From a virus (taxonomy: Duplodnaviria; Heunggongvirae; Uroviricota; Caudoviricetes), in IMG/VR virus record IMGVR_UViG_2671180674_000013: 13,397 bases of DNA. One strand, written 5' to 3'. Position 1 is the stretch's first letter; the number at the start of each line of letters is the position of its first letter. Positions 1 through 13,397 of this stretch are shown piece after piece. The notes under the pieces were generated by a model that saw only the letters and a program-made list of their open reading frames with translations, made no database searches and was not told the origin of the DNA. A program made the position numbers and the translations under genes.

Positions 1-378
1 ATGCAGATGAACCCCCAGAATACTCAACCGCAAATAATGAACTATGACCCGAATCTGACGTCGTGCGGACGCATGGCAAAACAAACCGTTCGATTAACTT
101 TCGGACTATGGGAATACCGCGAAACATTCGAAGTTACTGTCGGCGGCAATCTGACCGGACTGGATGTTATCAGTTGCGCTATTGAAAGCCTGTACGCAAC
201 GCTACCTTATGAAGAAGTCAGGGATAAGCGTACTGGGGAAACGGATATCATGGCCACCATTAATATTGGCGAACTGATATGCCAGGATGAAGACCTGTCC
301 GGAGAGCTCTGGCTTGCCGGGATGCTTGTCTCAGCAGAAATTATCAGTATTGAACCCGCTACAAACATACGACTCTGA
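1..378 (+). CDS. hypothetical protein (prophage accessory gene upstream of xis-int module)
   Basis: Open 125-codon frame from ATG at base 1 to TAA at 376-378. No family recognised by eye. The true start could lie upstream of the window. Confidence 0.4.
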   Translation: MQMNPQNTQPQIMNYDPNLTSCGRMAKQTVRLTFGLWEYRETFEVTVGGNLTGLDVISCAIESLYATLPYEEVRDKRTGETDIMATINIGELICQDEDLSGELWLAGMLVSAEIISIEPATNIRL

Positions 379-409
379 AGTTCTCACTATTCAGAGAGCA
401 GGAGAAAAA

Positions 410-652
410 ATGTTCGCTCTGATTAATCAAGGACAACTGTATACCGACAGTGCCGGTTACCCGGTAAAAATTGTTCGCTGCATAAACAACACCGTGTTGT
501 ACAGAAGAATGGACGGGCAAACACAATCGGTAAAAATGAACGATTTTAATGAATCGTTTGAACGGATCGATCACCAGGAATACCGACAAATTCTGGCAGA
601 AACAGAACAGGAAGCTCATCTGAAAAAATTACGTGCCATGAAAAGGAAGTAA
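410..652 (+). CDS. hypothetical small protein (80 aa)
   Basis: AGGAG at 400-404, 5-nt spacer, ATG at 410, stop TAA 650-652. The longer 287-start version in the ORF track overlaps the previous ORF and has no RBS. Confidence 0.4.
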   Translation: MFALINQGQLYTDSAGYPVKIVRCINNTVLYRRMDGQTQSVKMNDFNESFERIDHQEYRQILAETEQEAHLKKLRAMKRK

Positions 653-655
653 AGA

Positions 656-802
656 ATGAATAAAGCGTTTGAGCTATGGGTACGCCAGCGTTACGGCAAT
701 CGCTATGACCTGACGCGAGATGTTGACGGTTTCTACTGTCGCGAAATTGTGAGACGAATGTTTGAAGTGTGGTGCCACTGCCGTGGGCTGAATGTTGTGT
801 GA
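656..802 (+). CDS. hypothetical small Cys/His-containing protein (48 aa)
   Basis: AGGAAG at 644-649, 6-nt spacer, ATG 656, TGA 800-802. Below the ORF-track length cutoff, found by reading. It sits 4 nt after the previous stop, suggesting an operon. Contains C-x-x-x... and C-H-C residues. Confidence 0.3.
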   Translation: MNKAFELWVRQRYGNRYDLTRDVDGFYCREIVRRMFEVWCHCRGLNVV

Positions 803-810
803 GGTGATGT

Positions 811-1020
811 ATGGGACTGGATTGCGTGCCTATATCAACCTACTGCCGCGACGCGGGAGAAACGGTTGATGCCGTTAACAAACGGATACAAAGAGGAATC
901 TGGAAAGAAGGGATTCATGTATTAAAAGTCGACGGAGTTAAAGAACGTTGGGTCGACTTAATGGAGATTTCAAAATGGGCAAGAAAGAACAAGGATCATT
1001 ATCTCTCCCTAGAGGAGTAA
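811..1020 (+). CDS. excisionase-like small DNA-binding protein (Xis-like)
   Basis: 69-aa basic protein directly upstream of and overlapping the integrase start, the typical xis-int arrangement. GAGGTGA RBS lies 5 nt before ATG 811. Family assignment is by position and size, not by a recognised motif. Confidence 0.5.
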   Translation: MGLDCVPISTYCRDAGETVDAVNKRIQRGIWKEGIHVLKVDGVKERWVDLMEISKWARKNKDHYLSLEE

Positions 1021-2147
1021 CTATTCGCCAGCATAAAACTGGCAGCACCCTGGTTATCACTTTTACATATAAAGGGGTTCTGTGTCGGGAACCCCTCTCC
1101 AGAATGGAAGTAAATGCGCGCGGCGTGAAGTACGCCGAGCGTCTGCTGGGAGAAATAAAAAATCAGATTATCGATGGTACCTTCGAATATGCAAAATACT
1201 TCCCCAACTCCCAAAAGCTGGAGTTGTTCGGGGGAGTGAAAAAAAACAAAAATATAAAATCTTACCTGGATGAATACCTGATTATCTGCCAGAACCGTAA
1301 CCTGTCACCATCGACAATTAGAGGTTATGAAAAATGCCTGTCGGCGCTGTCAGCATTGCATAAATTTCATGTATCAGAACTGACACCTGCAGTACTAAAA
1401 AACTGGATCGCCAGCAGAAAAACAAAACTGAAAACTATCCGCAATAATCTTTCATTCCTGCGCAGCGCCATAGATGAAGCGGTGACCGATGGTTTGTTAA
1501 CAATAAATCCTGTCACGCTGGTCAGCGCCAGCCGGTATCACGTATTGGACAACACACCAGGCAGTGATGATTACGAGGTCGATCCTTTTACACCAGCGGA
1601 GACGGCAGCAATCTATGACGCCTGTCATTACCCGGAATGGCGAAATCTGTTTCGCTTTGCCTTTAATACCGGACTGCGCAGCTCAGAATTGTGCGCGTTG
1701 CGCTGGACAGATATAGACTTCATCGGCAACACTGCACATGTCCAGACTGCAAGCGTAGTCGGGGTAATCAAAAGCACCAAAACAAAAGCCGGCACTCGCA
1801 AAGTACAACTGAACAACGAAGCACTGGCAGCTCTTCAGGCACAAAAGCCCTACACGGCGCTAAAAAGCGACTTCATATTCAGCGATCCGAAAACTCGCGC
1901 TCCTTGGGCAAACGCAGATGCGATCCGCAAAAAAGCCTGGGTACCGACCCTTAAAAAGGCTGGAGTACGCTATCGCAATCCGTACCAGACACGCCACACG
2001 TTCGCCACTCGGCACATTAGCCAGGGTGTTAACCTGTTCTGGCTTGCTGGTCAGATGGGGCATAAAGGACCGGAAATGCTGTTCAGACATTACGGCTCTT
2101 ACCTTGCAGAATACGATGGAAAAACGGCGATTTCTGCAACCCCGTAA
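975..2147 (+). CDS. int: tyrosine recombinase / phage integrase (lambda-type, N-terminal arm-binding domain)
   Basis: N-terminus LSLPRGVTIRQHKTGSTLVITFTYKGVLCRE resembles the arm-binding domain of enterobacterial prophage integrases. C-terminus carries R...HTFATRH...LAGQMGH...RHYGSY, matching the tyrosine-recombinase R-H-R-Y box. Start placed at ATG 975 (GGAG at 963-966); the ORF track starts earlier at a TTG (948). Confidence 0.88.
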   Translation: MGKKEQGSLSLPRGVTIRQHKTGSTLVITFTYKGVLCREPLSRMEVNARGVKYAERLLGEIKNQIIDGTFEYAKYFPNSQKLELFGGVKKNKNIKSYLDEYLIICQNRNLSPSTIRGYEKCLSALSALHKFHVSELTPAVLKNWIASRKTKLKTIRNNLSFLRSAIDEAVTDGLLTINPVTLVSASRYHVLDNTPGSDDYEVDPFTPAETAAIYDACHYPEWRNLFRFAFNTGLRSSELCALRWTDIDFIGNTAHVQTASVVGVIKSTKTKAGTRKVQLNNEALAALQAQKPYTALKSDFIFSDPKTRAPWANADAIRKKAWVPTLKKAGVRYRNPYQTRHTFATRHISQGVNLFWLAGQMGHKGPEMLFRHYGSYLAEYDGKTAISATP

Positions 2148-2279: not shown

Positions 2280-2306
2280 CGGGTTCAACTCCCGCCAGCT
2301 CCACCA
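2280..2306 (+). other. attachment-site core: 27-nt copy of the 3' end of tmRNA gene ssrA (ends ...GCCAGCTCCACCA)
   Basis: CGGGTTCAACTCCCGCCAGCTCCACCA is identical to the 3' terminus of enterobacterial ssrA as I recall it. Sequence upstream of 2280 does not continue the ssrA match, so this is a displaced or partial 3' segment, not a full gene. Confidence 0.75.
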
Positions 2307-2416: not shown

Positions 2417-2472
2417 AATTGGTACACGTTTAGGTACACGCTATACTGTGGTCCATTAAACGTGTACCAATT
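2417..2472 (+). promoter_or_regulatory. putative int promoter embedded in a 16-bp perfect inverted repeat (operator-like)
   Basis: AATTGGTACACGTTTA (2417-2432) and TAAACGTGTACCAATT (2457-2472) are exact reverse complements. A third GGTACACG copy is at 2433-2440. Between them lie a -35-like TTGGTA (2419-2424), a 17-bp spacer and a -10-like TATACT (2442-2447). The RBS GGAAGG (2475-2480) and ATG 2490 follow. Confidence 0.45.
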
Positions 2473-2489
2473 ATGGAAGGGATCCAGAC

Positions 2490-3680
2490 ATGGCGCGTAT
2501 CACACGCCCCCTCACTAACAATGAAATCCTTAAAGCCAAACCCCGTGAAAAAGACTTCACCCTTCATGATGGTGATGGCTTGTTCTTGCTCGTCAAAACC
2601 ACTGGTAAAAAACTCTGGCGCTTCCGTTATCAACGACCGGGAAGCAGCAGCCGCACAAATTTGAGTCTCGGCTCATATCCTGCCCTTACACTCGCAGCAG
2701 CTCGTCAGATACGCGACCAGCACTTAACCACGCTTGCGCAAGGTATGGATCCGCAGCAGCAACAAGAGCAGGCATCAGAACAACGTCAGATTGAGTTGGA
2801 TAGTATTTTCTCAACTGTGGCCGCCAACTGGTTCAAAATGAAGAGCAAAAGTGTCACTGAAGACTACGCTAAAGATATTTGGCGCTCTTTGGATAAGGAT
2901 GTGTTCCCTGCAATAGGCGCGATTCCTGTTCAGGAGATTAAGGCCAGAACGATAGTTGAAGCGTTGGAACCAATCAAAGCACGAGGTGCATTAGAAACTG
3001 TTCGTCGCTTGGTCCAGCGCATTAACGAAATAATGATTTACGCAGTTAACACAGGCCTGATTGATGCTAATCCGGCATCGGGTGTCGGAATGGCATTTGA
3101 GAAACCGAAAAAGCAAAACATGCCGACACTTCGACCAGAAGAATTGCCAAAGCTCATGCGCTCTTTGGTGATGTCGAATCTCTCAGTTTCGACCCGCTGT
3201 CTAATTGAATGGCAACTCCTGACGCTCGTGCGTCCATCTGAGGCTTCTGGCGCTCGGTGGGTAGAGATCGATCTTGATGCCAGGCTCTGGACAATTCCAG
3301 CAGAGCGGATGAAAGCAAATCGAGAGCATATCGTTCCTTTATCAACCCAGGCGTTAGAAATTTTGGAAGTAATGAAGCCTATTAGTGCTCATCGTGAACA
3401 TGTCTTCCCCAGTAGAAATGATCCCAAACAGCCAATGAATAGCCAGACGGCGAACGCTGCCTTAAAGCGGATTGGTTATGGTGGAAAGTTGGTTGCACAT
3501 GGTTTACGTTCAATTGCGAGTACAGCTATGAACGAGGCGGGATTCAATGCTGACGTCATTGAGTCTGCTCTAGCACACTCTGATAGAAATGAAGTTAGAA
3601 GAGCTTATAATCGTTCTACATATCTAGATAAAAAAATAATACTATTTAACTGGTGGGGTGCACAGGTCTATAAGAAGTAA
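2490..3680 (+). CDS. int: P4-family tyrosine integrase (CP4-57 IntA-like)
   Basis: 396 aa. N-terminal MARITRPLTNNEILKAKP...DGDGLFLLV...KLWRFRY and C-terminal HGLRSIASTAMNEAGF...ALAHSDRNEVRRAYNRSTYL match the conserved blocks of P4/CP4-57-type integrases as I remember them. It sits about 180 bp downstream of the ssrA 3' core, as intA does relative to ssrA in E. coli K-12. Confidence 0.9.
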   Translation: MARITRPLTNNEILKAKPREKDFTLHDGDGLFLLVKTTGKKLWRFRYQRPGSSSRTNLSLGSYPALTLAAARQIRDQHLTTLAQGMDPQQQQEQASEQRQIELDSIFSTVAANWFKMKSKSVTEDYAKDIWRSLDKDVFPAIGAIPVQEIKARTIVEALEPIKARGALETVRRLVQRINEIMIYAVNTGLIDANPASGVGMAFEKPKKQNMPTLRPEELPKLMRSLVMSNLSVSTRCLIEWQLLTLVRPSEASGARWVEIDLDARLWTIPAERMKANREHIVPLSTQALEILEVMKPISAHREHVFPSRNDPKQPMNSQTANAALKRIGYGGKLVAHGLRSIASTAMNEAGFNADVIESALAHSDRNEVRRAYNRSTYLDKKIILFNWWGAQVYKK

Positions 3681-3683
3681 ATA

Positions 3684-3705
3684 GAGCCTGCTGAAATGCA
3701 GGCTC
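3684..3705. terminator. bidirectional hairpin between convergent int and cargo gene
   Basis: GAGCCTGC (3684-3691) pairs with GCAGGCTC (3698-3705) around a 6-nt loop. It lies between the int stop (3680) and the minus-strand stop (3713), with T-rich flanks on both strands. Confidence 0.55.
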
Positions 3706-3712
3706 CACTTCT

Positions 3713-6349
3713 TTATTCAGTAAATATTACATCATCAATATTAAAAGACACTTTAAAATTAGGGTAGAGTTTCAATATTACCTTTTCGAAAATCTCATCA
3801 TCATCATTTAAATTTCTTGCTCTTGAATAAAGACGGTAATTATCTTTTGTTATTTGTTTAATTTCGATATGACAAGCATCATTACTATCAAAGCCTCTAA
3901 AGAAGGTAAAACTATCCAAACTTACAGCATAAATATTATTCAAGGCATTTTCGTCCTCAAAGAAGTAAGTTAACTTATAATCCTTATAAACTTCATAATT
4001 ATAGTTCTTAACTGAATTTTTATTCACAAATAATATATAATTACTCTTCTCTATATCAGCATCATTAAATTTTAAAAAACGCCCTCCTGCTTTGACACAA
4101 TTGAATAATTGCTGCTTATATATAGATATGATTCCATCTCCATATAGCCCAGCACTTGATAAATATGAAACATCATCAACCACGCCTAAAAACTCACGTT
4201 TTGATGGATAAAAAATTAGTTCACTTGTTTTATGGCATATAGGAAGCTTGGATAAATCAACATTTAATGTACTAACAAGCCATTTATTTAAATGTAAATT
4301 CACATCTATTTTAAAGCGTAATACAATGTTCTTATCCATTGTCGATTTTATAACTTTTCTCGTAACTTCTTTGCTCTTATACTCCAACATCATATCAAAT
4401 TTATCTTTAATTAAATCCACTTCCCTTTTCACTTCATTATTATCATACCCCATAGATGTTACCATTATATCTAATTCAGGAGACTCACACGCTTTAATTA
4501 GCAGGTGATAGTCGTTAGAACTAAATCCCACCACATCGACTAATTTACGCCAGTCGTACAAGTATCTCAGGTTAAACCCTCTACGTTTTACAGCCAAAAC
4601 CAATAATATAAAGACTAATGCTCTTATTGCATAGTGATATTCTGTAACAGTATAGGCCTCACCTTCCGGGAGATTTCTAATTCGTTGTTCATCTATACTT
4701 GCACGAATTCTTTCTTCATAAGAACCAAATAACATTCCATATAACTCAACTTCATCTGTATAATTAGAAAAGATAGCAAGATCGCTCCACAATTTGCTAG
4801 CATTAATTATCGCATCGATCTCCACGTCACTTTTATTGTCAGTTTGAATTGCGCTCCAACGCATCTGAAGAACAGTTAAAACAAACCGCTGAATTTTAAA
4901 TATAACAGAAATAATTTCGCTAGCATTTCTTTTTTCTAAATTCAAATACTTGACACTAAGATGCTTAGTTCCTGCATTAAAGTACTCCCCCCAAAACATT
5001 ATCGCACTGTAATCTAACTCATTGCATGCAGATTCAATCAACCCTTTAATGACTTCATAATAGTCTGCGTTATCATCGTGATAACTCAAATAACTATTCA
5101 AGGTATCTTCATGATTTTTGATAAAAGCATTAAAGTCATCTCTATTTAAAGAGAGTTTTGCTATCTGTATTATAAATTCTAACGCGGCAGTTTTCTTTCT
5201 AAGATTAACATTCAACTCAGAAAAATTATTCATTAACTCATCAATAGAATTTTTTTTCACATCCGAATTATTTAAATATTGATATGACAGTCCAAAAGCT
5301 ATATCAAAAGGATATGCTGAAACATCCCCATTAACTAAGCATGAAAAAACATTAATAGCATTTCTTATTGACTCTCTGTTATTTTCCAAAAGAGCACTAT
5401 ACAGATAGATGACAACCCCATTAATTAATTCATCATAATGATTAATCACTTTAAATTCATTATCTGTTATTAACACACCAACAATCAAAGAAGAAACTTT
5501 CTTTGATGATTTTTTATCCAAAATTTTTTTAGCCGTATAATTAACTTCTATAGTTTTGCTTCCACTACTATGCAGGTTAATATTTGGCACAATAATTTCA
5601 TATTCATCCAATAAACCTTTTATCTTCATTCCATTTAAAAAATTGTTTAGTTTATGGAATTTCTCTAAATCTATGTCAACAGTCAAAACATTATCACCCC
5701 CATATATCCCTATGCTATATGGTTGTTGCTTTTGCATTTTCATTTTGCCATAAGAATAATATCCATTTGGTAAATCTCTAACTAGATTTAAAATCTTATC
5801 ATGTAATTCAGAGTTAGCATCCTCTAACAAGGTATAACCCTTGACAAGACTTGAGCAGTGAGATTGTAAATACTCAACAGCGAAGTTCTTATTACGTGAC
5901 ATGTTAAATAATTTCAAGTATGTTTTAAAATACTTCAAAAGAAAATACATTGATAGTAATTGTGACACCACATACTGAGCAATACCACCACCAAAAACAA
6001 AAAAGAAGAATGAAATTATCAAGGTTGATATTGCATCAATACCAAACTGCACAAGGTTGATTTCATCCAGTATCTTTTTCCTAATATAACTTTCCAACGC
6101 ACGAGGTGAGGATTTATTAACAGCATCAACAGTCACACTCATAAAAGTTAATGACAACGCACTGATTGTACCGTGTATACCTAAGGAGACCCCCCAAGCA
6201 CTAAATATCCAATCAAACCCCAATTTTTTTAAATCACTAGAATTAGAAAACAACCACCACCACTCATTTTTACAAAAAAAAACAAGAATACATAAAGTAA
6301 AAAAAATAAAAAAACCAGAGATATAACAAAACAATCTTTTACCCATCAT
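3713..6349 (-). CDS. large membrane-anchored protein of unknown function; candidate anti-phage defence / abortive-infection effector
   Basis: 878-codon uninterrupted frame. Strongly AT-rich: a few sampled lines give roughly 20-32% G+C, against visibly GC-rich neighbours. The first ~145 residues contain 3-4 hydrophobic helices (LFCYISGFFIFFTLCILVFFC, FDWIFSAWGVSLGIHGTISALSLTFMSV, FGIDAISTLIISFFFFVFGGGIAQYVV). The remaining ~730 residues are hydrophilic and Asn/Lys/Tyr-rich with no canonical Walker A, HNH or PD-(D/E)xK motif seen by eye. AAGGA lies just upstream of the ATG. Confidence 0.8.
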   Translation of the reverse strand: MMGKRLFCYISGFFIFFTLCILVFFCKNEWWWLFSNSSDLKKLGFDWIFSAWGVSLGIHGTISALSLTFMSVTVDAVNKSSPRALESYIRKKILDEINLVQFGIDAISTLIISFFFFVFGGGIAQYVVSQLLSMYFLLKYFKTYLKLFNMSRNKNFAVEYLQSHCSSLVKGYTLLEDANSELHDKILNLVRDLPNGYYSYGKMKMQKQQPYSIGIYGGDNVLTVDIDLEKFHKLNNFLNGMKIKGLLDEYEIIVPNINLHSSGSKTIEVNYTAKKILDKKSSKKVSSLIVGVLITDNEFKVINHYDELINGVVIYLYSALLENNRESIRNAINVFSCLVNGDVSAYPFDIAFGLSYQYLNNSDVKKNSIDELMNNFSELNVNLRKKTAALEFIIQIAKLSLNRDDFNAFIKNHEDTLNSYLSYHDDNADYYEVIKGLIESACNELDYSAIMFWGEYFNAGTKHLSVKYLNLEKRNASEIISVIFKIQRFVLTVLQMRWSAIQTDNKSDVEIDAIINASKLWSDLAIFSNYTDEVELYGMLFGSYEERIRASIDEQRIRNLPEGEAYTVTEYHYAIRALVFILLVLAVKRRGFNLRYLYDWRKLVDVVGFSSNDYHLLIKACESPELDIMVTSMGYDNNEVKREVDLIKDKFDMMLEYKSKEVTRKVIKSTMDKNIVLRFKIDVNLHLNKWLVSTLNVDLSKLPICHKTSELIFYPSKREFLGVVDDVSYLSSAGLYGDGIISIYKQQLFNCVKAGGRFLKFNDADIEKSNYILFVNKNSVKNYNYEVYKDYKLTYFFEDENALNNIYAVSLDSFTFFRGFDSNDACHIEIKQITKDNYRLYSRARNLNDDDEIFEKVILKLYPNFKVSFNIDDVIFTE

Positions 6350-6457
6350 TCGTCCTTATGTTTTTTGGGTATTGTAAACCAAAGATAAAACCCTCTATGG
6401 TTTTGCATGCCCTGTATATTGATTTGTGTAAATTAGCTCATTACCAATTAGCGCGCA

Positions 6458-6476
6458 ATGCTCTCCCCGCCACGCC
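6458..6476 (-). other. cos-like site (P2/186/P4-type 19-nt cohesive-end sequence)
   Basis: The minus strand reads GGCGTGGCGGGGAGAGCAT. This matches the P2/186-family cohesive-end sequence as I recall it (P2 GGCGAGGCGGGGAAAGCAC, 16/19; a 186-type variant matches more closely). It lies about 170 bp downstream of the psu-like gene, where cos sits in P4. Confidence 0.5.
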
Positions 6477-6576
6477 TGCCCGCTTAAGAGGTCACTTTTA
6501 ATGCAGGTGCATGAACGGCCTCAGACCGCACCGGTACTGGTGTTGCGTGGGATAAAAAATACGGGGATTTGCATGC

Positions 6577-6610
6577 AAAGCCATGCACCTTATGGATGCA
6601 TGGCTTTTTT
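6577..6610 (+). terminator. terminator-like hairpin (canonical on + strand; may also act on the late operon)
   Basis: AAAGCCATGCA (6577-6587) pairs with TGCATGGCTTT (6597-6607) around a 9-nt loop, followed by TTTTTT to 6610 on the + strand. On the minus strand only 3 U follow the stem. Confidence 0.45.
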
Positions 6611-6648
6611 CGGGAAAAATAGCGGAATTTTCGGTTTTTTTTCGCGTG

Positions 6649-7215
6649 CTACCGTGCGGCCAGTTCTGCACGTCGGCGGGTGTAAATCAGGTTCTGTGCC
6701 GGGGTGAATTTCTGGCGATTATCATCCCGCGAAGCCGCATCAGGCCTGAATCCGATAGCCGTTAAAATATCGCTGTCCTGCACGGAATAATTAATTTTTT
6801 CACCTGCGGCCAGCCACACCGACAGGGCTTCACGCAGATAATCAACCGAGTGCTGCATGGCGCTCTGTTTTACTGCGGGAAGCTGTTCGTGATATCCCAT
6901 CAGCTCAGGTGCCAGCGTGGCGGCCAGCTCCGCGCCGTGCTGCTGCATAAAGTCATGGAGCCGGTTGCGGATACTGATGTGCTGCACCTCCTCATGTGAG
7001 CGGATATAGCGACCGGCGGCCTGATTAATTTCCCACTTTTTCACGTCGATATTGTCGCGCAAATCCTGCATTCTGAGCGGGATTTGTTCGTCACCGGCAA
7101 GGAGCTGTTCACGGTATTCCCGTTCAAGGTCTGCCAGTTCGGCTTTACGTTTCAGCCAGGTGTTTTTGTTCGTCTGACAGGCCTCAAAGGCCTGCTGTAT
7201 GGTCACAGTGGTCAC
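6649..7215 (-). CDS. psu: Psu-like protein (polarity suppression / capsid decoration), by position and size
   Basis: 188 aa, last gene of the minus-strand late operon, immediately before the cos-like site. P4 Psu is about 190 aa and occupies the same position (sid-delta-psu-cos). This is not a verified sequence match. Confidence 0.5.
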   Translation of the reverse strand: MTTVTIQQAFEACQTNKNTWLKRKAELADLEREYREQLLAGDEQIPLRMQDLRDNIDVKKWEINQAAGRYIRSHEEVQHISIRNRLHDFMQQHGAELAATLAPELMGYHEQLPAVKQSAMQHSVDYLREALSVWLAAGEKINYSVQDSDILTAIGFRPDAASRDDNRQKFTPAQNLIYTRRRAELAAR

Positions 7216-7230
7216 GTGTCTCTCTCCTGA

Positions 7231-7470
7231 TTAATGCCGGAACGGCGAGCTGTAGCAGCCCTGTACTTTACGCGGCGGCGGTGGCGTCACCGGGGCGGGG
7301 TCGGGTTTCTCCGGTGCGGCACGTATCACACCGTCAACCGACTCGATGGTGCGGAAAGTGGCCGAGCATTCGATATTGGTACACTGGTGATAACGCTGTT
7401 TGACGTTTTCCGACAGATAACGGCTGGTACGGACGTGCGCGGTATTTTTGCAGAACGGGCAGTGAAACAT
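7231..7470 (-). CDS. ogr: Ogr/Delta-family zinc-finger late transcriptional activator
   Basis: MFHCPFCKNTAHVRTSRYLSENVKQRYHQCTNIECSATFRTIESV carries the C-x2-C...C-x4-C spacing and the conserved RTSRY, RYHQC and CSATF blocks of P2 Ogr as I recall them. Single-domain, 79 aa. Confidence 0.85.
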   Translation of the reverse strand: MFHCPFCKNTAHVRTSRYLSENVKQRYHQCTNIECSATFRTIESVDGVIRAAPEKPDPAPVTPPPPRKVQGCYSSPFRH

Positions 7471-7473
7471 GAT

Positions 7474-8217
7474 TCAGCCCTCTGCCTGTTCGTGGGATTT
7501 TTCTGCCAGTTCAGCGGCAAGTTTCATCCGTCTGGCCGGGCTTCTTAACAGCGCCATATCAACCCCGGTTATGACCGGGCGATTCATGCCCGTTACGGAC
7601 AGGACCGGCTCCTGCTCCATATCAAAATGATACAGGGCTGACTGCATATTCAGGGCATCACCCAGCTCGCGGGTCACGGTCGCACGCGGCGAGGTATCTC
7701 CACTCATTTCCAGCGACCGTATACGCAACAGAAAGGCACGTAACAGTGCAGGATTGATACCGGTCAGCGCCTTCTTCCACTCGCTGTTGGCGTAGGTAGT
7801 GAACGCTTTTTCATGGGCGCTGATATAAGCCGTACCGGAGGAGCATGCGCCAAGCATGGCGTGGCTTTTGTCTTTCTCCAGCTCGGTAATCAGACCGGTG
7901 AACTCATCAGCCAGTTCGCGGCTGGCGATACGTTTGCTGTGTTCAGCTTTCAGTTCAGGAGTGAGGTTGCCGCGCAGAGTTCGAAAGCGGCTGCGCCAGT
8001 CCTGTTCGGCCTGTGCGCTTTCACTGAGGGCGGTCTGTCGTTCCTGCTCACAACGCTGAATGGAAGCCTCAATGTCGCTGAGTTTACCCATGCAGGCCGA
8101 GTGTGCGTCTTTTGCTTCGTTAAGTGCGGCCAGCGCACCGGCAATACGTTGTTCCGCGCCTTCATCCTGTTTACTGATAACGGTCTGCATGGCTTTGATA
8201 ATGAGTTCGGGTTTCAT
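7474..8217 (-). CDS. Sid-like protein (capsid size determination scaffold), by position
   Basis: First gene of the late operon, just upstream of the ogr/delta-like gene. Start placed at the ATG complementary to 8215-8217, which has GGAG 9 nt upstream and gives 247 aa (P4 Sid is about 244 aa). The ORF track extends it to 8283 without an RBS and into the putative promoter. Confidence 0.45.
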   Translation of the reverse strand: MKPELIIKAMQTVISKQDEGAEQRIAGALAALNEAKDAHSACMGKLSDIEASIQRCEQERQTALSESAQAEQDWRSRFRTLRGNLTPELKAEHSKRIASRELADEFTGLITELEKDKSHAMLGACSSGTAYISAHEKAFTTYANSEWKKALTGINPALLRAFLLRIRSLEMSGDTSPRATVTRELGDALNMQSALYHFDMEQEPVLSVTGMNRPVITGVDMALLRSPARRMKLAAELAEKSHEQAEG

Positions 8218-8289
8218 GTTCAGGTTCTCCGTATGTTCAACCTGAAATGATTCTGACGCCTCCTGCACAACAACACGATTCATTGCCGT

Positions 8290-8307
8290 TGTCAGAGTGC
8301 TGGCACA
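8290..8307. promoter_or_regulatory. TGT-N12-ACA dyad: candidate Ogr/Delta binding site of the late (Psid-like) promoter
   Basis: TGTCAGAGTGCTGGCACA at 8290-8307. The dyad centre is about 80 nt upstream of the proposed sid-like start, which would place it near -55 relative to a plausible transcription start, as in P2/P4 late promoters. Confidence 0.45.
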
Positions 8308-8385
8308 AACAGACCTTAAAATCAGGCTGGCCAGAGAAAGGTCGCAGGAAAACCTTACTCACCGTTTGTTTTTTTACTTATAACT

Positions 8386-8488
8386 ATTCACCACTGTTCA
8401 CCTTAAATAAAAAGATAAGTAATACAGTAAGTTAAATGGTGAACAGTTGAAGGTCTGACTGTTCACCGTCTGTTCACCACTGTTCACC
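8386..8488. repeat. iteron cluster of TGTTCACC octamers (P4 crr-like alpha-binding region)
   Basis: Perfect TGTTCACC at 8395-8402, 8460-8467, 8471-8478 and 8481-8488. Inverted copy GGTGAACA at 8438-8445. Degenerate ATTCACC at 8386-8392. Confidence 0.7.
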
Positions 8489-8570
8489 CTTCAGTTTTGC
8501 TCTGGCTATATCATTTAGACTTTATTACGATTGAAAACGAAGAATATATAACTAAAAGAGATATTAATTG

Positions 8571-8627
8571 CTGCATTGTAATGCAGTGATTTGCATATGT
8601 TTGCCAGCGTTTGCCTTTGTTTGCCAG
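8571..8627. promoter_or_regulatory. palindrome plus helically phased GTTTGCC repeats in the promoter region of the alpA-like operon
   Basis: Perfect 16-nt palindrome CTGCATTGTAATGCAG at 8571-8586. GTTTGCC at 8599, 8609 and 8619 (10-bp phasing), with TGTTTGCCAG repeated at 8598-8607 and 8618-8627. Confidence 0.4.
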
Positions 8628-8754
8628 AGCGAAAAGTCAATGTTTGTTTCCCCGAAAATCTCACATGACCTGAGGGAAAATATAAACATAATAAGGAGCT
8701 ACCCGAAGCCGGACGGACACGACCGGCACTGTATGGACTTTGTGAGGTAGCCCG

Positions 8755-9021
8755 ATGCACACCGCTTTTTCTTCCCCGTCTTCTGCCCCTGCCGCGCCGC
8801 TGATGCCGGTTTCTGATACCGTTCACGAGCGCTTTATCCGTCTGCCCGAAGTGATGCATCTGTGCGGCCTGTCCCGCTCGACCATTTACGACCTCATCAG
8901 CCGGGAAGCCTTCCCGAAACAAATCTCCCTCGGCGGAAAAAACGTGGCGTGGGCGCAGTCTGAAATCACTGCATGGATGGCGGATCGCATTGCCGAACGT
9001 AACCGGGGCTATGACGCATGA
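8755..9021 (+). CDS. alpA: AlpA-family phage transcriptional regulator (MerR-like HTH)
   Basis: The segment [47 protein letters not shown] matches the AlpA helix-turn-helix pattern (RLP.V....G.SR.TIY......FP.....G...V.W...EI..W). GAGG lies 8 nt before ATG 8755. Confidence 0.7.
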
Positions 9022-9148
9022 TGATGGCCGCTCAGCAAAAAGCCCCTTTTTCTGGCTTGCTTCTTTTCGCCGTTTCCAGGTATAGTTTTCCCGCTGTCGC
9101 AAAATCGGCAGCCGGGATTGGCGTCCCGTTTACAACATTGGCGACACC

Positions 9149-9171
9149 GGACGCGCCTTGCGTCTTTTTTT
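9149..9171 (+). terminator. short-stem intrinsic terminator in the leader downstream of the alpA-like gene
   Basis: GACGC (9150-9154) pairs with GCGTC (9160-9164) around a 5-nt loop, followed by seven T (9165-9171). The stem is only 5 bp, so it is weak or conditional. Confidence 0.35.
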
Positions 9172-9374
9172 GTGTCTATGCCTCAGCGCATCCATTTTTG
9201 ATCCAGAGATTTATCTGTCTATGGATCCTTCGTGTAATGGTGGCTCAGGCGGGGGCTTCTCACGAAGCGCCGGTTTCCAATGTTGCCGGTTACGCCAACC
9301 CCGTCTGGGCTACCACCAGTGAAATTGGCGTTTCCAGTGGTAGCAGTCACATGCAAACATTGGAGGTTGCCACT

Positions 9375-9569
9375 ATGGCTACGACCCTCACCCCGTCACA
9401 CCCGCAGTTTGTCTTTGTGTTTGCCGCCGTTCGTCGCGCAGACCGTAAACCCCGTATTTGCATGCTGCGCACCGTTGCCGGTGACGAGCACGCCGCACGC
9501 CTTTCCCTCGTTCGCGATTACATCCTCTCGTTCGCTGGCCGTCTGCCGGTTGCGGAGGTGCGCGCATGA
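9375..9569 (+). CDS. hypothetical small protein (64 aa)
   Basis: Strong GGAGG at 9362-9366, 8-nt spacer, ATG 9375. The longer 9018-start form in the ORF track has non-protein-like composition upstream of this ATG. Confidence 0.5.
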
Positions 9570-9793
9570 GACACACCACCATTACTGCCCGTGACCTCGA
9601 ATGTCTGGAGCATATGCGCAATGTCGGCCAGCTCGTCAGCGACCTGATGCAGGTGCAGGACTGCGCCACCGTTCGTCGTGACCCTGCGCAGCAGTTACAG
9701 CTCACCTCCGTGATTTACCTCATGACCGCCCAGCTCGACGGCGTGGTCGAACGCTGCAATCAGCAGTGGCTGACCGGGGAGGGTAACGTATGA
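9566..9793 (+). CDS. hypothetical protein (75 aa), translationally coupled
   Basis: ATGA start/stop overlap with the preceding ORF at 9566-9569; acidic, helical-looking sequence. Confidence 0.5.
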
Positions 9794-10110
9794 AAAAGCC
9801 ATTACCACCCGTATTACGCGCCGCGCTGTATCGTCGCGCCGTGGCCTGTGCATGGCTGACCCTGTGCGAACGCCAGCACCGCTACCCGCACCTCACCCTC
9901 GACGCGCTGGAAAGCGCCATTGCCGCCGAGCTGGAGGGCTTCTACCTGCGCCAGCACGGCGAGGAAAAAGGCCGTCAGATTGCCTGTGCCCTGCTCGAAG
10001 ATTTAATGGAAGCCGGACCACTGAAAGCCGCCCCGTCGCTGTCCTTTCTCGGGCTGGCCGTGATGGATGAACTCTGCGCCCGTCATATCACCGCACCGGC
10101 ACTGCACTGA
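9790..10110 (+). CDS. hypothetical protein (106 aa), translationally coupled
   Basis: ATGA overlap at 9790-9793. Directly precedes the primase gene, in the position of the P4 epsilon/accessory genes. Confidence 0.5.
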
Positions 10111-10121
10111 GGGAAAACACC

Positions 10122-12455
10122 ATGAAAATGAACGTAACGGACACCGTAAAACAGGCGTGCGGCCACTGGCCGCGCATTCTCCCTGCGCTGGGTGTGAAGG
10201 TGATTAAAAACCGCCATCAGTCCTGCCCGGTGTGCGGCGGCTCCGACCGCTTTCGCTTTGACGATAAAGAGGGGCGCGGGACGTGGTTCTGTAACCAGTG
10301 CGGCGCGGGAGACGGCCTGAAACTGGTAGAGAAAGTGTTCGGCATGACCCCGTCAGAGGCGGCCGGGAAGGTGAACGCCGTGACCGGCAACCTGCCGCCG
10401 GTTTCCCCGGAAGTGACTGCGGCCGCAGAGGCCGAAACTGTGGCCGACCGCAAAGCGGCGGCCGCGCTGGCCGTCAGGATCATGGAGAAAACCCGACCGG
10501 CCACCGGCAATGCCTACCTCACCCGCAAGGGTTTCCCCGACCGGGAATGTCTGACGCTCACCGTCATGCATAAAACCGGCGGCGTGACGTTCCGCGCCGG
10601 TGATGTGGTTGTCCCGCTGTATGAGGATACCGGCACACTGGTTAACCTTCAGCTTATCAATGCTGACGGTCTCAAGCGCACCCTGAAAGGCGGTCAGGTC
10701 AAAGGTGCATGCCATACCATTGAAGGGCAAAAACAGGCGGGAAAACGCCTGTGGATTGCGGAGGGTTATGCGACCGCGCTCACCGTGCATCACCTGACCG
10801 GGGAAACCGTCATGGTGGCGCTGTCCTCCGTGAACCTCCTTTCTCTGGCGAGCCTTACCCGTCAGAAGTCCCCGGCCTGTCAGATTGTGCTGGCCGCTGA
10901 CCGTGACCTGAACGGCGACGGCCAGAGCAAAGCCGCTGCGGCCGCAGATGCCTGTGAGGGCATTGTTGCCCTGCCGCCGGTGTTCGGTGACTGGAATGAT
11001 GCGTTTATGCAGAAAGGTGAAGAGGCCACGCGGAAAGCCATTTATGACGCCATCCGGCCACCGGCGCAAAGTCCGTTTGATACCATGAGCGAAGCGGAAT
11101 TTACCGCCATGAGCGCCAGCGACAAGGCCTTGCGGGTGCATGAGCATTACGGCGAAGCGCTGGCGGTGGATGCGAACGGCCAGCTCCTGTCCCGCTATGA
11201 AAACGGCATCTGGAAAAATATCCCTGCCGCCACTTTCTCACGGAATGTGGCTGACTTATTCCAGCGTCTGCGCGCCCCGTTCTCGTCCGGGAAAATTGCC
11301 TCGGTAGTGGAGACCCTGAAACTGATTATTCCGCAGCAGGATACACCGGCACGTCGTCTGATTGGCTTTCGCAACGGGGTACTCGATACCCAAAGCGGCG
11401 TATTCAGCCCGCACCATAAATCGCACTGGCTGCGCACGCTGTGCGACGTGGATTTTACCCCGCCGGTGGACGGGGAAACGCTGGAGACTCACGCGCCAAA
11501 CTTCTGGCGCTGGCTCGACCGTGCAGCCGGTAAAAACCCACAAAAACGCGACGTGATTCTGGCCGCGCTTTTTATGGTGCTGGCGAACCGTTACGACTGG
11601 CAGCTCTTTCTCGAAGTGACCGGTCCCGGCGGGAGTGGCAAAAGTATTCTGGCCGAAATCGCGACCCTGCTCGCCGGAGAGGATAACGCCACGTCGGCCG
11701 ACATCGACACGCTGGAAGACCCGCGCAAGCGAGCATCCCTGATTGGCTTCTCGCTAATCCGTCTGCCTGACCAGGAAAAATGGAGCGGTGACGGCGCAGG
11801 ACTCAAGGCAATCACCGGCGGCGATGCGGTCTCGGTTGACCCGAAATACCAGAACCCCTATTCCACGCATATTCCGGCTGTAATTCTGGCCGTGAACAAC
11901 AACCCGATGCGCTTCACCGACCGCAGCGGCGGCGTGTCGCGTCGCCGGGTGATTATTCACTTCCCGGAGCAGATTGCCCCGGAGGAACGCGACCCGCAGC
12001 TCAGGGATAAAATTGCGCGCGAGCTGGCCGTCATTGTGCGCCAGCTTATGCAGAAATTCAGCGACCCGATGACCGCGCGCACACTGCTCCAGTCGCAGCA
12101 GAACTCCGACGAGGCACTCAGCATCAAGCGCGATGCTGACCCGACGTTTGATTTTTGCGGCTATCTGGAAATGCTGCCGCAGACCAACGGGATGTTTATG
12201 GGGAATGCCAGCATCATCCCGCGTAATTATCGTAAATATCTCTATCACGCGTATCTGGCCTATATGGAGGCTAACGGCTACAGGAACGTGCTCAGCCTGA
12301 AAATGTTCGGGCTGGGGCTGCCCATGATGCTGAAAGAGTACGGCCTGAATTATGAGAAGCGGCACACCAAGCAGGGGATACAAACCAATCTGTCGCTGAA
12401 AGAGGAAAGCTACGGAGACTGGTTGCCGAAGTGCGATGACCCCACAGCAACATAA
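10122..12455 (+). CDS. P4 alpha-type bifunctional primase/helicase
   Basis: 777 aa, the same length as P4 alpha. N-terminal zinc-ribbon C-P-V-C-G-G...C-N-Q-C-G, a Toprim-like LWIAEGYATALTVH...AADRD segment, and a Walker A GPGGSGKS (from VTGPGGSGKSIL) in the C-terminal helicase half. GC-rich, with iterons following. Confidence 0.9.
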   Translation: MKMNVTDTVKQACGHWPRILPALGVKVIKNRHQSCPVCGGSDRFRFDDKEGRGTWFCNQCGAGDGLKLVEKVFGMTPSEAAGKVNAVTGNLPPVSPEVTAAAEAETVADRKAAAALAVRIMEKTRPATGNAYLTRKGFPDRECLTLTVMHKTGGVTFRAGDVVVPLYEDTGTLVNLQLINADGLKRTLKGGQVKGACHTIEGQKQAGKRLWIAEGYATALTVHHLTGETVMVALSSVNLLSLASLTRQKSPACQIVLAADRDLNGDGQSKAAAAADACEGIVALPPVFGDWNDAFMQKGEEATRKAIYDAIRPPAQSPFDTMSEAEFTAMSASDKALRVHEHYGEALAVDANGQLLSRYENGIWKNIPAATFSRNVADLFQRLRAPFSSGKIASVVETLKLIIPQQDTPARRLIGFRNGVLDTQSGVFSPHHKSHWLRTLCDVDFTPPVDGETLETHAPNFWRWLDRAAGKNPQKRDVILAALFMVLANRYDWQLFLEVTGPGGSGKSILAEIATLLAGEDNATSADIDTLEDPRKRASLIGFSLIRLPDQEKWSGDGAGLKAITGGDAVSVDPKYQNPYSTHIPAVILAVNNNPMRFTDRSGGVSRRRVIIHFPEQIAPEERDPQLRDKIARELAVIVRQLMQKFSDPMTARTLLQSQQNSDEALSIKRDADPTFDFCGYLEMLPQTNGMFMGNASIIPRNYRKYLYHAYLAYMEANGYRNVLSLKMFGLGLPMMLKEYGLNYEKRHTKQGIQTNLSLKEESYGDWLPKCDDPTAT

Positions 12456-12463
12456 CCTCACTC

Positions 12464-12490
12464 AGACCGGCATCAGCCGGTCTTTTCCTT
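12464..12490 (+). terminator. rho-independent terminator after the primase gene
   Basis: AGACCGG (12464-12470) pairs with CCGGTCT (12477-12483) around a 6-nt loop, followed by TTTTCCTTTC. Confidence 0.6.
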
Positions 12491-12507
12491 TCTGACCATT
12501 GCCACAG

Positions 12508-12792
12508 GGTGAACAATCCACTGTTCACCCTTCACCGTATATTCACCCTGTATCACCATGAAATTATTGATAAAAAACCAGAGGTGAACAGTGTGAATAG
12601 TAAAACCTGAAAAAACTTTTTATCCCTCCACCACATCGCCTGACCGGGCGCATCCAGAGCGAGAAAAAAACACAAAGGTGAAGAGTCGACTGTTCACTCT
12701 TCACCAACTCATCACCATTTATCTTTATGATTTAAAATAGAAAATAAGCATGGTGAACAGTGTGAACAGTTAAATGCAAAAAAACTTTTTTT
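12508..12792. repeat. iteron cluster of TGTTCACC/GGTGAACA octamers with A/T-tract elements (P4 ori-like)
   Basis: GGTGAACA at 12508-12515, 12583-12590 and 12752-12759. TGTTCACC at 12522-12529. Near-copies at 12531-12537, 12541-12548, 12677-12684, 12691-12698, 12700-12705 and 12761-12769. Inverted repeat GGTGAAGAGT (12677-12686) / ACTCTTCACC (12696-12705). A5-6CT5-7 tracts at 12609-12623 and 12776-12792. Confidence 0.7.
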
Positions 12793-12896: not shown

Positions 12897-13397
12897 ATGG
12901 GGACTACTTTGCTTCAAGAAAACCATGAAAAAATTTTAAACATACTAAATGAAGCTAAAGATGTGGCGCTAAGGTATTACAAATTAACCAATAAGCCTCT
13001 CGGAATCACTGGAGAAATAGCTGAACATGAAGCTGCAACTCTTCTCGGGTTGTCACTATGTTCAGCACGTCAGTCCGGATACGATGCGACTGAGATTTTG
13101 GACGGGAAAGAATATAGAGTTCAAATCAAAGGTCGATATATGCCTGATCCTAAAAAAGTCTCTGCGAGAATTGGTGCTATTGATATATCTAAGCCATTTG
13201 ATTCTGTTCTTTTAGTTTTGCTTGATGAAAATTATGATGCTTTTGCCATGTATGAAGCATCACGAGATGTAGTAGTCGCAGCTCTTCAAGCTCCGGGGTC
13301 AAAGTCTAGAAATGAGCGAAATCAACTAGGCATAGCAAAATTCAAGTCCATTAGCCGTCTCCGCTGGAGCAAGGTTGCTGAACCTGAGATCCTTTAA
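12897..13397 (+). CDS. hypothetical protein (166 aa), AT-rich accessory gene at the alpha-proximal end of the element
   Basis: Complete frame from ATG 12897 to TAA 13395-13397, with an AGGGA-type RBS upstream. Composition is markedly more AT-rich than the adjacent primase gene. No family recognised. The spaced acidic/basic residues (GEIAEHE...GYDATE...RVQIKGR) are weakly reminiscent of a PD-(D/E)xK-like core, which is speculative. Confidence 0.6.
   Translation: MGTTLLQENHEKILNILNEAKDVALRYYKLTNKPLGITGEIAEHEAATLLGLSLCSARQSGYDATEILDGKEYRVQIKGRYMPDPKKVSARIGAIDISKPFDSVLLVLLDENYDAFAMYEASRDVVVAALQAPGSKSRNERNQLGIAKFKSISRLRWSKVAEPEIL

Follow-up and report, generated by a model that had tools for sequence, protein, structure and literature searches.

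The DNA analysed here is a stretch of 13,397 nucleotides (nt), hereafter the window, held in IMG/VR as record IMGVR_UViG_2671180674_000013. From about position 2282 to its end, the window very probably carries an intact P4-type phage satellite of approximately 11.2 kb, integrated at the 3' end of Escherichia coli ssrA just downstream of a lambdoid prophage at the same site, with slots that hold probably protective payloads. Each backbone gene was compared with the annotation of the P4 reference (NC_001609 / X51522). The order is collinear with that of P4: int, cargo, cos, psu-delta-sid, ori, vis (alpA), CI RNA/icd, cnr, alpha, crr and att. Every backbone open reading frame (ORF) of the element is full length in the ORF listing. 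We read the element as intact because these ORFs are full length and because conservation extends to cos, ori, crr, the CI RNA and the arm repeats. All seven components of the published definition of P4-like satellites (Int, Psu, Delta, Sid, AlpA and Ash, plus Alpha; PMC8628076 / PMC13586616) were detected, Ash through a match of PF10554 to the ORF at 9018-9569.

An earlier reading of the letters without database searches (the sequence-only reading) had proposed a P4-like satellite prophage with conserved P4 gene order. Both proposals held up, as the backbone genes are homologous to those of P4 well beyond chance, at or near the positions it had given, and collinearity with P4 extends to cos, ori, crr and the immunity RNA. 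The findings that it had named as refuting, a 188-aa and a 247-aa ORF unlike Psu and Sid or an alpha-like protein unrelated to primase-helicases, were looked for and did not appear. Its description of the element as nearly complete misses that P4 epsilon and orf151 have no homologue here and that Delta is a single finger, not a tandem pair.

The satellite is a further member of a well-known kind, with an ordinary backbone and nothing new in it. P4-like elements occur in a large proportion of E. coli genomes, and good descriptions of their hotspots exist. Related DNA was found by megablast in 1645 of 5426 complete E. coli genomes. Other strains have Drt3, retron St85, AAA+DUF4435 or DUF4747, among others, as cargo on the same backbone. 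This swapping of cargo on a common backbone agrees with the hotspots already published, the main one between int and psu and the minor one between the primase and att (PMC9122126; PMC13586616). The window element is an intact example with payloads in both of these known variable slots. Its sole unusual part is a candidate membrane protein in the cargo slot, with a predicted capsid-like tail end.

The packaging site and late genes lie on the minus strand. The 19-nt cohesive-end sequence of cos, GGCGTGGCGGGGAGAGCAT (6458..6476), agrees with P4 GGCGAGGCGGGGAAAGCAC in 16 of its 19 nt. Of 200 shuffles, 1 gave an equally good match, and the flank aligns with the right end of P4; match and homologous flank together are those of a P2-type cos suited to packaging by a helper terminase. 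The identical cos variant occurs in the Klebsiella P4-like locus cloned by Rousset 2022. The psu gene (6649..7215), for a capsid decoration protein and Rho inhibitor, matches Pfam Psu PF07455 over its full length (1.1e-87), and its product is 63% identical to P4 Psu. The delta gene (7231..7470) encodes an Ogr-type zinc-finger late activator with one finger (Ogr_Delta PF04606, 8.5e-21), which aligns to each half of the 166-amino-acid (aa) P4 Delta and has CxxC...CxxxxC visible in its translation. The sid gene (7474..8217) encodes the 247-aa external capsid-size scaffold, 31% identical to P4 Sid over 212 residues (E=5e-27) and matching phrog_6165 (4e-79); no Pfam match was found for this ORF. 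Its start at 8217 was set by the P4 alignment and agrees with the RefSeq annotation of relatives. The cos-like site, the Ogr zinc finger, and the assignment of the 188-aa and 247-aa ORFs as Psu and Sid, all put forward by the sequence-only reading, are thus supported by homology.

Gene names in this region call for care. For the Sid family (phrog_6165) the PHROGs label reads 'polarity suppression Psu-like' and the RefSeq name for Sid is 'capsid protein', whilst the P4 RefSeq record uses one Psu-like product name for both sid and psu, which could mislead automated calls.

Upstream of sid, a TGT-N12-ACA dyad (8290..8307) occupies the same aligned position as the TGT-N12-ACA of P4. Such dyads are not more numerous across the window than expected by chance, and the support for this one comes from its positional conservation. 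By analogy with the late promoters of P2 and P4, it is likely the Delta/Ogr box of the Psid promoter.

The replication module is also that of P4. The sequence TGTTCACC has nine exact copies, against 0.28 expected by chance, in clusters at 8395-8488 and 12508-12759. Five exact copies form the type-I iterons of ori (8384..8488) in the sid-alpA intergenic region. These are predicted alpha-binding sites, and the region is collinear and near-identical with the annotated P4 ori repeats. Four exact copies lie in crr (12508..12790), which follows the alpha terminator at 12464-12483 and consists of two direct repeats of about 114 nt (12508-12621 and 12677-12790; 71% identity). P4 has a crr of 2 x 120 bp at the same place. 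The sequence-only reading had noted iterons after alpha; they are present, but they are those of crr, and ori is the set between sid and alpA. On the plus strand, cnr (orf106; 9790..10110) encodes the copy-number regulator (DUF5375, 3.4e-65; 92% identity to P4 orf106). It is followed on the same strand by alpha (10122..12455), whose 777-aa product is a primase-helicase and origin-binding protein, 85% identical to P4 alpha over 775 of 777 residues. Its Pfam domains are Zn_Ribbon_Prim, Toprim_3, D5_N, DUF5906 and Pox_D5, and the Walker A motif GPGGSGKS is visible, in line with the alpha-type primase/helicase that had been called from the letters.

The integrase gene int (2490..3680, plus strand) encodes an ssrA-specific tyrosine integrase of the IntA/CP4-57 type, with the Pfam domains Arm-DNA-bind_3, Phage_int_M and Phage_integrase and a match to PRK09692 in NCBIfam at 579 bits. 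It is 36% identical to P4 Int (E=2e-86) and 60% identical to IntA of the K-12 element CP4-57. The 88-aa excisionase and regulator alpA/vis (8755..9021, plus strand) matches Phage_AlpA PF05930 (3e-20) and is 70% identical to P4 orf88, confirming the AlpA-like ORF reported earlier.

The left end of the satellite is given by an exact 25-nt copy of the 3' end of ssrA, the gene for tmRNA (2282..2306, plus strand), which is the attL core. This is a single exact match with 0 expected by chance, and it is also the junction with the lambdoid prophage to its left. An Rfam-type RNA scan returned a partial tmRNA match here, and ARAGORN found no complete tmRNA or tRNA in the window. In strains E2 and KMi029, which lack the lambdoid prophage, these 25 nt form the 3' terminus of an annotated ssrA, and the same integrase lies directly downstream. 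Between this copy and int lie the arm-type repeats TTGGTACACG (2419..2470), read from the sequence as a direct pair (2419-2441) and a single copy in inverted orientation (2459-2470). They are putative integrase arm sites, on the model of the arm repeats annotated in P4 attP.

The right end lies beyond the window, and a sequence search found no second ssrA core inside it. In most related E. coli elements the match to the window ends at 12792. The KMi029 match reaches the window end, with a mean identity of 94.5% and 100% over the last 605 bases. Beyond the match, KMi029 has two TTGGTACACGTTTAGGTACAC arm-type repeats and then a degenerate ssrA repeat, CAGACTCCGCCAGCCCCCAATCATGATTGG. The TTGGTACACGTTTAGGTACAC pair, found in the window at 2419-2441, recurs beside attR in both KMi029 and NCTC10973. 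The degenerate ssrA repeat also ends the NCTC10973 element, and in K-12 the right end annotated for CP4-57 (psaA) falls on it. On the basis of the right ends in KMi029, NCTC10973 and K-12, we infer that attR would lie about 80-110 nt past the window end, giving an element of about 11.2 kb. The P4-like definition calls for att repeats at the edges and a size of 5-20 kb; attL is in the window. The predicted sequence there consists of the TTGGTACACGTTTAGGTACAC repeats, then CAGACTCCGCCAGCC(C)CCAATCATGATTGG, then ypjA-side sequence.

These results bear on the limits that had been drawn at 2417 and 12792, neither of which was correct. The element starts at the ssrA copy at 2282-2306 and it is the arm-type repeats that begin near 2417; at the other side crr ends at 12792, and the element continues through a second cargo gene to attR. 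The choice of ssrA as the attachment site was sound, with the 25-nt copy of its 3' end in the window and the gene itself outside.

The immunity region is overlain by a 183-codon ORF (9018..9569, plus strand), which matches Phage_ASH PF10554 (8.9e-31) on residues 22-131 and phage_ICD_like (NCBIfam) on residues 131-178, and is 68% identical to the P4 'cI 137-aa' ORF. The CI RNA, its a1/b1 targets and the isrK-like hairpin and terminator all lie inside it. The immunity leader (9080..9170, plus strand) contains, by Rfam, CI RNA targets of the a1/b1, seqA type (c4-a1b1, 9080-9132, 48.5 bits), an isrK-like hairpin (9093-9170, 75 bits) and an intrinsic terminator, for which a terminator-like site was found at 9149-9165. 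Both Rfam matches are above the gathering score. The CI immunity RNA itself (9233..9320, plus strand) belongs to the C4 antisense RNA family and is full length (RF01695, 78.5 bits against a gathering score of 45). Probably only the C-terminal part of the 183-codon ORF, residues ~131-178 (about 9408-9551), is translated, as an Icd-like cell-division inhibitor. The three small coupled ORFs of the sequence-only reading do overlap as described (9018-9569, 9566-9793 and 9790-10110), but the first is mostly RNA-coding sequence.

The second of these, a 75-aa ORF (9566..9793, plus strand), matches phrog_10110 (1.7e-46) and no Pfam family. It is translationally coupled, with 4-nt overlaps on both sides, and is conserved in the relatives examined. 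The ORF sits where P4 has epsilon and orf151, and shows no similarity to either. Its family is found in 61% of P4-like elements and is absent from P4 (PMC8628076). P4 epsilon belongs to PF25738, whereas PF10554 (Phage_ASH) matches the ORF over the CI/C4 RNA (cf. P4 7888-8584). Assuming that the published Ash/'epsilon' marker is PF10554, papers that equate 'Ash' with epsilon may consequently score the immunity region, not the derepressor. The identity of this marker matters for inferring how satellites activate their helpers.

The cargo of the main hotspot (3713..6349, minus strand) is a protein of 878 aa with about four N-terminal transmembrane (TM) helices, a helical-repeat middle and a predicted HK97 capsid-like C-terminal domain. 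It is a candidate for an anti-phage protein that works as a single gene. The GC content of its ORF is about 30%, against about 55% for the backbone. No significant family was found for it in Pfam, NCBIfam or PADLOC. Matches to AbiEi (E=0.0011) and AvrM_N (E=0.004) were taken to be noise. When 1.84 billion cluster representatives were scanned exhaustively with HMMER, only 26 relatives came back, and word-indexed homology searches gave only two close ones. A sequence-profile search of the PDB gave nothing, and there was no tblastn match among 50,697 phage records. Amongst complete E. coli genomes the gene is present in 3 of 5426, each time in a satellite disrupted by an insertion sequence (IS), and the window copy is the only one seen in an intact satellite. 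In E2 an IS3 element truncates alpha, and in ETEC1732 and ETEC1734 an IS21-family element interrupts sid; the cargo gene is itself intact in these genomes and 99.9-100% identical.

The family nevertheless has a consistent genomic setting, and of its eight members with a readable neighbourhood seven lie in a P4 or P2 cos-adjacent hotspot and the eighth beside recombinases (P0016 adjoins two tyrosine recombinase genes). The window protein, P0002 (63% identity) and P0004 (29%) lie between int and psu/delta in P4-like elements. P0007, P0008, P0009 and P0010 (22-26% identity) are in P2-like prophages, in the P2 defence hotspot that separates gpA from the portal gene; the P2-like prophage loci L009, L011, L012 and L014 carry distant homologues (22-26%) in this gpA-gpQ hotspot. 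The 3.1-kb contig of P0003 holds no informative neighbour. P2- and P4-type hotspots have this family in common, though only with deep divergence between its members.

In Rousset et al. 2022 the representative sequence of P4 system #71 (7 occurrences, '4 TM') is this cargo protein. P2 system #27 of the same study (131 occurrences, '3 TM') is a distant homologue with the same LGIHGT membrane motif. Neither system has a Pfam domain or a note beside it in the list, where the capsid-like domain goes unmentioned. The LGIHGT motif does not figure in that study's table of defence-tested systems, nor does the cargo motif occur in the Vassallo 2022 supplements.

Conservation within the family peaks in the N-terminal membrane domain, where residues 51-150 score 0.58-0.66 against about 0.35 elsewhere. 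The invariant residues are W47, W52, H59-G60-T61, G120, G122, Y126 and Y140. An AlphaFold2 (AF2) model built on a 21-sequence alignment was confident (pLDDT 82.9, pTM 0.65). Fold searches with the whole protein retrieved only generic helical repeats. The likeness of the C-terminal domain to the HK97-type fold of capsid proteins and encapsulins is tentative, with moderate Z scores (<=7.0) and no sequence support: no capsid Pfam family matched this domain even at E<=10, and hhalign against P2-type gpN gave a probability of 0.3%. Because there is no support at the sequence level, we keep the capsid-like fold as a lead, not a result.

The second cargo gene (12897..13397, plus strand) lies between crr and attR and encodes a 166-aa protein that matches PADLOC mREase_II PDLC03209 over its full length (9.8e-101). 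The protein also matches Pfam DUF6998 and the catalytic domain of Eco15I (PDB 8q5m, E=1e-4), with the residues QIK at 76-78. Eco15I has a PD-QxK site with a QIK motif (PMC11347163). From these matches, the protein is read as a BisI-family (PD-QxK) modification-dependent endonuclease, dependent on cytosine modification. Literature searches for 'DUF6998' or by accession number found nothing. The segment 12897-13397 occurs in 1 of 5426 complete E. coli genomes, that of KMi029. NCTC10973 lacks the endonuclease gene, and there the arm repeats and attR come immediately after crr. The crr-attR position is thus a second variable slot. The minor primase-att hotspot holds 7% of P4 defence systems (PMC13586616).

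Several observations temper the interpretation of the element as an intact satellite with protective cargo. A helper prophage, excision and packaging lie beyond the reach of a 13-kb window, and attR is outside it, its probable position being taken from the KMi029 match. Neither P4 epsilon (PF25738) nor orf151 was found in the window by BLASTP or tblastn (best E 2.5 and 0.32, respectively). The suggested function of the 878-aa cargo draws on its location and predicted structure, PADLOC, Pfam and NCBIfam being silent. In the other three complete genomes the satellite around this cargo is IS-disrupted, so the cargo may persist without satellite function. Some of these points would also suit a domesticated or decaying satellite, in which the P4 genes are kept but mobilisation has been lost and the element has become a fixed defence island at ssrA. 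The missing epsilon derepressor and the IS-disrupted copies in three complete genomes with the same cargo would agree with such decay, as would a position trapped behind another prophage that occupies the same att site in tandem, and ssrA is also home to the cryptic CP4-57 of K-12. We consider this unlikely, since in the window the backbone ORFs are full length, with conserved cos, ori, crr, CI RNA and arm repeats. Moreover, an epsilon-less arrangement with the 75-aa ORF looks typical of the family: the order Ash-75 aa-DUF5375 recurs in relatives L003, L005, L006 and L007, and the 61% prevalence reported for the 75-aa family (PMC8628076) points the same way. The kinship with CP4-57 could be taken further, to a CP4-57-type integrative island that is no phage satellite at all. 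The integrase, the att site with the same ssrA attL/attR, and an AlpA-family protein are indeed shared, but psu, delta, sid, alpha and cos are present here with strong P4 homology and none is annotated in CP4-57, which makes an island of this type highly improbable.

What the 878-aa protein does is a separate matter. Together with its relatives in the P2 hotspot, it could be an uncharacterised single-gene anti-phage system, with a membrane effector and a capsid-like domain acting as decoy for, or co-assembly sensor of, the major capsid protein of an invader. This proposal, which leans on the structural model, is tentative and on balance doubtful. If true, such a domain, sensing or poisoning phage capsid assembly, would be a new mode of phage recognition. 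Fv1 is a capsid-derived restriction factor, and a capsid-like decoy in the cargo would be a bacterial counterpart of factors of this kind. The protein might instead have no anti-phage role, serving the satellite or its helper, for instance by disturbing or diverting helper capsid assembly with its capsid-like domain in the manner of Ccm of the Staphylococcus aureus pathogenicity islands (SaPI), or acting as a lysogenic-conversion membrane protein. We think this improbable on several grounds. The family is also present in the accessory hotspot of P2-like phages, which would gain nothing by sabotaging their own capsid, and membrane anchoring is unsuited to a scaffold role. The gene is seldom found and has a patchy distribution (3 of 5426 complete genomes), and its AT-richness is shared with other cargo exchanged at the hotspot. 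Furthermore, 6 of 8 previously untested hotspot genes did protect when tested (PMC13586616).

If the intact satellite works as P4 does, and the steps that follow are drawn from P4 biology, lysogeny would be maintained by the CI RNA, which would pair with its leader targets and terminate the left operon early. Upon late expression by a P2-like helper, the Ogr of the helper and the Delta of the satellite would activate both Psid and the late leftward promoter. Vis/AlpA and Int would excise the element, and Alpha would bind the TGTTCACC iterons at ori and crr and replicate it. Sid would then form the external scaffold by which the helper capsid protein is constrained to small capsids, whilst Psu would decorate these capsids and inhibit Rho. 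Finally, the helper terminase would cut at cos and package the genome of about 11 kb. Because P4 epsilon is missing, derepression of a resident P2 by that route is not expected; helper infection or induction, or some analogue of epsilon, would probably be needed.

The payloads in both variable slots would most likely shield the lysogen from other phages. The endonuclease would be aimed at DNA heavily modified with 5-methylcytosine (m5C) or 5-hydroxymethylcytosine (hm5C), and as a BisI-family enzyme would be expected to cut GCNGC sites that bear several such modifications. The 878-aa protein might act as a single-gene abortive-infection or exclusion factor, in which the variable helical and capsid-like C-terminal part would recognise a phage component and the conserved four-TM N-terminal domain would be the effector.

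The left part of the window (1-2147) is the right end of the lambdoid prophage, with DUF5406, DUF4222, an excisionase (811-1020) and an integrase (948-2147) of 399 aa with Arm-DNA-bind_2. Because this prophage sits in tandem at the same ssrA 3' end, the attL of the satellite is an ssrA fragment, not the gene. ETEC1732 has the same lambdoid arrangement, which there runs leftwards into Rha, a LexA-family repressor and Ash-family genes, and both ETEC1732 and ETEC1734 share the tandem arrangement of prophage and satellite. Just after the ssrA copy, in element-derived DNA, lies a terminator hairpin, GCCCGCACGGCACAAGCCCTGCGGGCTTTTTT (2344-2376). It resembles the terminator of the immunity region at 9145-9177 (33 nt, 76% identity) and may end ssrA transcription in lysogens. 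A partial match of this hairpin to IsrM (39.8 bits against a gathering score of 376) and a match to mir-3473 were both set aside as sub-threshold.

CP4-57, the cryptic prophage of E. coli K-12, shares with the satellite the ssrA site, the attR remnant (psaA), an AlpA-family regulator and an integrase of 60% identity. At 22 kb it differs in size, and its annotation has no psu, delta, sid, cos or P4-type alpha; across its annotated genes (yfjH...ypjF) only int and alpA are in common with the window. The comparison with CP4-57-like elements that the sequence-only reading had suggested is apt for the integrase and att site only. The endonuclease, for its part, is only weakly similar to the solved enzymes of the BisI family (Eco15I, NhoI; PMC11347163) and lacks the Eco15I C-terminal domain.

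The attachment site of P4 is leuX. The window element is at ssrA and its integrase is only 36% identical to that of P4. The TGTTCACC iterons are identical in the two and their CI RNAs belong to the same Rfam family. P4 carries gop-beta-cII as cargo, where the 878-aa TM protein is found here, and the window element has an extra endonuclease gene between crr and att. P4 Delta is a 166-aa tandem protein, whereas Delta of the window is a single 79-aa finger, and the 75-aa ORF takes the place of the epsilon and orf151 of P4. The wider P4-like family, as Moura de Sousa & Rocha defined it for SatelliteFinder (PMC8628076, PMC10085698, PMC13586616), has the same canonical order, a size of about 11 kb and the 75-aa and Cnr families between Ash and Alpha. 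Its main int-psu and minor primase-att hotspots are both as in the window, and between this family and the element described here there is no essential difference.

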